Position numbers and translations under genes: made by a program. From Callorhinchus milii (Eukaryota), in the NCBI RefSeq assembly GCF_018977255.1, contig NW_024704745.1:68448001-68512000 (forward strand): a stretch of DNA of 64,000 nucleotides, read 5' to 3'. The notes beneath the pieces were generated by a model. It searched no databases, was not told the DNA's origin, and saw nothing but the letters and a program-made list of their open reading frames with translations. Positions 1 to 1,063 of the stretch are shown in pieces; position 1 is the stretch's first letter, and each line of letters starts with the position of its first letter.

Positions 1-560
1 TGCTGTCGGTGTCTCCGCTCCCGCTGCCGCCCCGAGAATCCCTCCCCGAGAGCGCCGCGGCATCAGGAAGACTCGTATCATCGCCTTCGCCATCTCCTCT
101 GCCGACCCCCACCCCCACCCCCACCCCCACCCCCCCCGGGCTCCTGGTGCCGGGGCTGAGGACCACAGGCATCGCCTTGCGCCGGGGCTGAGGATGGGGA
201 GGGGGACGGGGCCGGGGCTGGGGCTGGGGAGGGGGCCCCGGACGGGCCGTCTGCTGGTGCTGCTGCTGGTGCTGTGCCTGTGGCTGTGCGCGGCAGTGGT
301 GCACGGCAGCGGGGAGTACTGTCACGGTTGGTTGGACACTCAGGGCAGTTGGCACGAAGGCGTCCAGTGCCCCGAGCGCTTCGACGCGGGCTCGGCCACC
401 ATCTGCTGCGGCTCCTGCTCACTGCGCTACTGCTGCTCCAGCACCGACGCCAGACTGGACCAGGGGCTCTGCCACAACGACCTGCCCTCCGGCAGCGGCG
501 AGGACCAGCCCGGCAGCCACGGCAAGGGGGGCGGCAACTCCCCGGCAGGTGAGGGGGGGG
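1..560 (+). promoter_or_regulatory. GC/CpG-rich 5' region (5'UTR and exon 1) of the SHISA gene, with a (CCCCCA)n run at ~106-136
   Basis: High GC and dense CpG compared with the AT-rich remainder; lies over a strong-Kozak ATG (AGGATGG, ATG at 194). Confidence 0.6.
194..548 (+). CDS. SHISA2: Shisa-2-like protein, coding exon 1 (signal peptide and Cys-rich Shisa domain)
   Basis: Hydrophobic signal [19 protein letters not shown], then [39 protein letters not shown], the Shisa1/2/3 cysteine pattern. Donor CAG|GTGAG at 548/549, phase 1. Orthology to SHISA2 rather than Shisa1 is not proven. Confidence 0.9.
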
Positions 561-1063
561 GGGGGGCGGCAACTCCCCGGCAGGTGAGGGGGGGCGGGGG
601 GGGCGGCAACTCCCCGGCAGGTGAGGGGGGGCGGGGGGGGCGGCAACTCCCCGGCAGGTGAGGGGGGGGGGGGGGGGGGGCGGCAACTCCCCGGCAGGTG
701 AGGGGGGGGGGGGCGGCAACTCCCCGGCAGGTGAGGGGGGGGGGGGGGGGGGCGGCAACTCCCCGGCAGGTGAGGGGGGGGGGGCGGCAACTCCCCGGCA
801 GGTGAGGGGGGGGGGGGGGCGGCAACTCCCCGGCAGGTGAGGGGGGGGGGGGCGGCAACTCCCCGGCAGGTGAGGGGGGGGGGGGGGCGGCAACTCCCCG
901 GCAGGTGAGGGGGGGGGGGGCGGCAACTCCCCGGCAGGTGAGGGGGGGGGGGGGGGCGGCAACTCCCCGGCAGGTGAGGGGGGGGGGGGGGGCGGCAACT
1001 CCCCGGCAGGTGAGGGGGGGGGGGGCGGCAACTCCCCGGCAGGTGAGGGGGGGGGGGGGGGGG
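526..1063 (+). repeat. Minisatellite of 15 copies: CGGCAACTCCCCGGCAGGTGA plus a G-run (unit 32-40 bp); each copy carries the exon-1 donor
   Basis: Counted directly. CAG|GTGAG exon ends at 548, 583, 620, 657, 697, 730, 769, 801, 836, 869, 904, 937, 973, 1009, 1042. Confidence 0.95.

Follow-up and report, generated by a model that had tools for sequence, protein, structure and literature searches.

A fifteen-copy donor-bearing minisatellite across the exon 1–intron 1 junction of SHISA2 in the Callorhinchus milii assembly, with splicing from its first donor in two RNA-type contigs

Minisatellites whose first unit lies across an exon-intron boundary are described in the human genes F7, CBS, IFI6 (6-16), LMNB2, and PDGF (PMC1557585). 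As reported there, the real donor only is used in F7, LMNB2, and PDGF, and two pseudo-sites are used as well in IFI6 and CBS. The 37-bp VNTR of F7 intron 7, a G-rich repeat of 5–9 units, each containing G triplets and 4 exonic nt, for which polymorphism has been shown, places identical donors behind the first one, which is used; in the experiments reported, neither the addition or deletion of units nor the mutation of G triplets moved the donor (PMC1557585), and work cited in the same paper indicates that intronic enhancers lying between competing donors favor the upstream one. Behind the real donors of IFI6 (intron 2), LMNB2, and PDGF (intron 4), 10–25 reiterated donors are reported, with leakage in IFI6 to the two nearest copies and with longer units in LMNB2 (100 bp) and PDGF (81 bp) (PMC1557585). 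The 31-bp VNTR of CBS intron 13, c.1444_1467+7(16_21), is composed mostly of exon end (24 nt) and donor (7 nt), and is reported in 15–21 copies (PMC2630376). Amphioxus 'mirage' minisatellites (Adh3, globins) are tandem-duplicated exon-intron boundaries, 5′ and 3′, which recur within one cephalochordate genome and are reported to be harmless to normal splicing (PMC3087553). Repeats of the spl-TR class (splicing-associated tandem repeat; PMC10078293), as of the ABCA7 type, are those for which repeat length correlates with splicing change. Our literature search, in which SHISA2 was not paired with repeat terms and subscription journals lay outside the coverage, found no paper on the array described here or on comparable C. 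milii arrays.

The array lies in a 64,000-nt stretch of the C. milii genome (hereafter the window). Judged from domains and database matches, the gene that carries it is SHISA2 of C. milii: it encodes a Shisa_N cysteine-rich domain, a single transmembrane helix, and a SHISA2-type tail, and its top matches are named shisa-2. The gene identity read earlier from the letters of the window is supported: Pfam Shisa_N (PF13908) was found in exon 1 (E 7.4e-19, residues 40–95), exon 1 was 100% identical to a C. milii shisa-2 database model with 90% of the query covered, and the best matches of exon 2 were shisa-2 proteins of sharks and rays (82–92% identity). Reports from frog describe SHISA2 as an inhibitor of both the glycosylation of Frizzled and the phosphorylation of FGFR (PMC10531659). 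The gene is laid out as follows.

194..548, + strand: coding part of SHISA2 exon 1, with hydrophobic leader, Shisa_N cysteine-rich domain, and luminal linker; it starts at the sole ATG before 560.
7350..7369, + strand: end of intron 1, with its polypyrimidine tract and the acceptor TAG; RNA contigs restart at 7370.
7370..7932, + strand: coding part of SHISA2 exon 2, with transmembrane helix, cytoplasmic tail, and stop TAA at 7930–7932.

Exon 2 was taken as the last exon because the C-terminal end that it encodes agrees with those of relatives. One database model of the C. milii protein, P0171, leaves exon 2 at 7908 for a third exon (10070–10129) and has a foreign N-terminus, both of which replace ends conserved in relatives and are probably modelling errors. 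The codon split by intron 1 (7367–7372) is Glu in C. milii and Val in 130 of the 135 relatives having the motif (3 Leu, 2 Met). This change to Glu produces an extra AG 2 bases past the acceptor; the letters are confirmed by RNA contigs, in which the first AG is used. The extra AG at 7370–7371, considered as an acceptor that would bring phase-0 donors into frame, was ruled out, as both contigs restart at 7370 and position −3 of the extra site is occupied by G.

The sequence-only reading had reported a 15-copy array across the junction of exon 1 and intron 1, and the array is present in the assembly at those coordinates. Its parts and immediate surroundings are as follows.

526..1063, + strand: junction-spanning minisatellite in which an invariant 21-nt core, each time followed by a G-run of 11–19 nt, is repeated to 15 copies, with 14 downstream pseudo-donors.
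526..531, + strand: exonic G6, the left microhomology where the array begins.
546..554, + strand: donor 1, CAG/GTGAGG, cut after 548, the one used.
587..640, + strand: units 2 and 3, which have the interruption G7-C-G8 of the G-run in common and are a variant unit in duplicate.
659..661, + strand: TGA in the exon 1 frame, from the GTGA of unit 4; read-through ends here at 155 aa.
1064..1366, + strand: G/GA-rich low-complexity tract continuing the last G-run (TRF rows 1054–1366), likely to be the ancestral intron start.

Tandem Repeats Finder (TRF) reported 526–1060 with a period of 33, 15.2 copies, 91% matches, and a score of 858, far beyond chance, and the units of 32–40 bp stand head to tail, with the unit length in the range of 10–100 bp. 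The 15 CAG/GTGAG donors have their last exonic bases at 548, 583, 620, 657, 697, 730, 769, 801, 836, 869, 904, 937, 973, 1009, and 1042. Every downstream donor is an unaltered copy of the first, the 21-nt core (17 exonic nt plus GTGA) being identical in 15/15 copies; 14 G-run spacers of 11–19 nt separate the cores, and the final G-run is 17 nt long. Missing from the earlier account was the G7-C-G8 interruption common to units 2 and 3. Neither the core nor the 17-nt exon end is present in the 991.5-Mb genome outside the SHISA2 array, which contains 15 copies of each. The donor is near consensus, agreeing at 8/9 positions as read from the sequence. RNA folding of 480–700 gave nothing more stable than shuffles (z +1.04) under a fold model without G-quadruplexes. 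Some 800 nt behind the array, in an AT-rich part of intron 1, two AATAAA hexamers overlap at 1873–1883.

Compared with the described systems, the SHISA2 array resembles that of F7 in its boundary-spanning first unit, the identical donors behind it, the G-rich unit of similar length (37 versus 32–40 bp), and the use of the first donor. It differs from F7 in having 15 units with 17–23 exonic nt and a G homopolymer of 11–19 nt that changes unit length and frame, and in lying behind the first exon of a two-exon gene. CBS is the closest in build and copy number; its units are, however, always of 31 bp and two of its pseudo-donors are used, whereas the unit length varies in SHISA2 and no pseudo-donor use was seen in the RNA contigs. 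Rows of reiterated donors behind a real one are shared with IFI6, LMNB2, and PDGF, and the duplicated boundary is shared with the mirages, from which the SHISA2 array differs by its occurrence in a cartilaginous fish and by the homopolymer inside the unit. Several genes of human and lancelet are known to have this arrangement, and the sole variation is the long homopolymer in the unit, because of which unit length and frame are variable.

Donor use was assessed over 140–625, the part of the window that contains donors 1–3, in two runs of one study, X5 and X6, whose RNA type was guessed; 4 of 24 runs (X1, X5, X6, and X14) were compared over this part. A single contig came from each of the two, one of 2090 nt at a depth of 13.7 and one of 2095 nt at 14.8, with 0 other letters, and both contigs match through 548 and then pass directly into the beginning of exon 2 at 7370. 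Since the exon end is without a retrocopy in the assembly, a contig from which the 6.8-kb intron is absent precisely between its GT and AG is spliced RNA. The first unit of the array thus lies across a real exon-intron boundary, at which protein models join as well, and the most upstream donor is the main or only one used in 2/2 RNA-type contigs. At neither 583 nor 620 did the contigs, as distinct from raw reads, show any joint or loose end; as contigs drop rare forms, this result indicates dominance of donor 1, not exclusivity. Two of the three database models of the C. milii protein (P0171 and P0173) also join at donor 1, and the third has an unrelated stretch in place of the linker and uses no donor of the array.

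The length of the luminal linker leads to the same donor. Among 144 proteins, the 99 with both anchor motifs have a linker of 12–25 aa, which falls within 19–25 aa in 98/99, and 26 of the 28 rows of shark and ray clusters have exactly 24 aa. Donor 1 gives 24 aa, and donor 3 would give 48 aa. The sequence-only reading had proposed that the array could act as a mutable dial, either on productive versus NMD mRNA or on the length of the linker. The latter is opposed by the conservation of the linker in relatives at the length given by donor 1, and the dial as a whole by the use of 548 in the contigs and protein models, together with a frame pattern at chance level (see below).

Collectively, the most probable account, in which we place good though not complete confidence, is that a 15-copy minisatellite arose across the SHISA2 junction, likely by G-run slippage or unequal exchange, that the transcripts seen are spliced at its first donor, and that the other 14 are likely silent or nearly so, the array having little or no function. 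Presumably, a G-rich intron start beside the exonic G6 provided the microhomology for a first duplication, after which the array would have grown as a G-rich minisatellite with slippage of the G-runs on top. The earlier suggestion that the exonic G6 slipped against the intronic G-run, giving rise to the array, is supported by the presence of G-runs at both ends of the array, although the step itself remains inferential. Among identical donors, the most upstream one would win, as in F7, and the G-runs between competing donors may push in the same direction. Near-neutrality would follow from the array being intronic once donor 1 has been chosen. Several points nonetheless stand against wholly silent pseudo-sites: minor use of donors 2–3 is invisible in contigs, which came here from two samples of one study; IFI6 and CBS do splice at two downstream copies; the SHISA2 donor is stronger than that of F7, in which perfect pseudo-sites did compete; and the 15/15 identical cores, which fit a recent expansion, are compatible with selection too.

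Among the alternatives, a corrected form of the dial is unlikely, in which donors 2–3 would be used to a meaningful extent, with the lengths of the first G-runs choosing between a SHISA2 with a linker longer by 24 aa and a 137-aa NMD-escaping form without the transmembrane helix. Such use has a precedent in IFI6 and CBS, in which two pseudo-donors are used beside the real one (PMC1557585), and the SHISA2 donors are near consensus. The frames are also suitable for it. When each donor was joined to acceptor 7370, only donors 1 and 3 were in frame (305 and 329 aa), donors 2 and 4 frameshifted to give 137 and 183 aa, and donors 5–15 took in the TGA at 659–661, exactly as had been read from the sequence before; the presence of GTGA in every unit means that read-through ends at the first donor met in phase 2. 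Long G-runs are known to be mutable. The frame pattern itself is, however, at chance level and fragile. Under random unit frames, 1.0 extra in-frame donors are expected (100,000 simulations) and 1 was observed, and 7/14 unit lengths are divisible by 3 (binomial p = 0.15). The pattern in which donor 3 is the only extra in-frame donor was kept in 36% of 20,000 simulations with a 1-base change probability of 0.3 per unit, and in 73% at 0.1. In an assembly, no part is less reliable than the lengths of homopolymers. Because of this unreliability, the chance-level count, and the fragile frame, the in-frame position of donor 3 is neither a secure reading nor a signal of selection. Against meaningful use of donors 2–3 also stand the occurrence of donor 1 alone in both RNA contigs, the narrow range of linker length in relatives, and the lack of effect of unit number and G triplets in F7.

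With regard to the proposed choice between productive and NMD mRNA, the stop of the donor 2 product lies at 7391–7393, in the last exon, and the stops of donors 2 and 4 both fall downstream of the sole junction if exon 2 is the last exon. The TGA at 659–661 lies upstream of the junction by 36 nt for donor 5 and by 69–381 nt for donors 6–15. Junction-dependent NMD follows a 50–55 nt rule, and with exon 2 assumed to be the last exon it would reach donors 6–15 only, which are the donors least likely used. Since the products of donors 2–5 fall outside this rule, a dial on NMD does not fit the near donors. The leak products made plausible by precedent would be the 137-aa form without the transmembrane helix from donor 2 and the form with 24 additional aa from donor 3.

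It is quite unlikely that the array spares donor choice and yet alters SHISA2 output, be it through a G-quadruplex or R-loop at the start of intron 1, loading of hnRNP H/F, or extra U1 binding against early polyadenylation. A mean G4Hunter-type score of 1.44 over the array versus 0.39 in exon 1 (own implementation) is consistent with this possibility, as are the AATAAA hexamers at 1873–1883 and the reported enrichment of G-rich, G-quadruplex-capable tracts in the 5′-terminal part of first introns (PMC13126168). The GA tract downstream, however, scores 1.78 by itself without the array, and deletion or addition of units in F7 revealed no regulatory element for splicing.

Equally improbable, in our estimate, is that the array is largely a sequencing or assembly artefact of poly-G with one or few true units. 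Long homopolymers are prone to sequencing error; the 14 spacers show 8 distinct G-run lengths, and even in a real array the exact lengths, and hence the frames, may be wrong. An artefact is nevertheless difficult to reconcile with 15/15 error-free cores, with the interrupted run common to two adjacent units, for which random error is a poorer explanation than the duplication of one variant unit, and with similar donor arrays without long homopolymers elsewhere in the C. milii genome. The internal sequence evidence thus favors a real array. Read records from run X1, taken as DNA by its size, do not decide the matter: its 430-nt contig over 242–543 stops 5 nt short of donor 1, and of its records over 140–625 (n = 42) one has a likeness of 99% or more, none lies at 95–99%, and 41 lie below 95%. 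The records displayed over the array are 31–32-mers with 3–4 differences, similar to ones in run X14 of another species. Because the single-copy words at 544–556 are also missing from X1, the absence of X1 records over the array is attributable to drop-out or filtering and is neutral with respect to the array. Run X14 gave no coverage of exon 1; a G-rich joint from 607 to 548 in X14 was set aside, as it is without the unit core.

A further proposal is the least probable of all. In it, donors 2 and 3 would be active in particular tissues or at particular stages of the embryo, and inherited changes of the first two G-runs would decide whether the by-product is a membrane SHISA2 with a longer linker or a short form that lacks the transmembrane helix and escapes NMD. 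The homopolymer inside the donor repeat would then serve as a switch that sets the frame of a Wnt/FGF-receptor regulator. If the dial were true, such heritable control of both splicing and frame would be unusual for a developmental regulator, and nothing seen here supports it.

Arrays of donor motifs are found elsewhere in the C. milii genome. Three CAGGTRAG motifs spaced by 22–32 nt gave 286 matches in the genome, versus 26 for the reversed motif and 26 with GT changed to CT, these numbers being overlapping matches and not arrays. Counted by eye as arrays from contig C1 to the start of C8, the same motif gave 16, that of SHISA2 included, versus 3. A looser AGGTGAG triplicate gave 1439 overlapping matches versus 1191 when reversed, a small excess that tempers the former one. 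At 5 places, SHISA2 included, the array has a SHISA2-type donor with G5 or longer directly behind it. Of 20 other donor arrays fetched, 2 were shown to lie behind a real coding exon. One is the coding exon of SLK (L052:2477-2582; G000:C7, ~27.87 Mb), which is followed by 3 further donor copies in a 32-bp repeat, and for which 4/4 proteins identical to the exon join at the first donor; a PDB search with L052 gave no match. Among 13 frames upstream of the fetched arrays, a Pfam search returned 1 weak match.

Donor-spanning arrays may be a genome-wide trait in C. milii, like the amphioxus mirages, and the ~10–11-fold excess of donor-motif matches over two controls could mean that G-rich intron starts are a hot spot of mutation, a question that concerns the whole genome and is not specific to SHISA2. 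The SHISA2 array itself offers a further natural case of 5′ splice-site choice among identical donors, in agreement with the F7 rule that the most upstream donor wins, and has a modest value as a model through its near-consensus donors, long intervening G-runs, and two-exon gene.

The second array shown to lie behind a real coding exon is on the minus strand at L047 (G000:C4, ~5.97 Mb), where a ROBO-type fn3 exon, for which PDB searches gave ROBO/fn3 matches, is followed by degenerate 17-bp units, many of which contain a donor-like motif. At L039, L042, L044, L050, L054, L057, and L058, up to 35–55 donor-like motifs were seen, the first donor lying behind unique, putative exon sequence; a PDB match for L058 was spurious. 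Further downstream in the window, at ~16200–17900 on the + strand, lies a C-rich, broken reverse-transcriptase remnant (Pfam RVT_1, E 1.1e-8 over 16700–17011), which we take from its motifs to be LINE-like.
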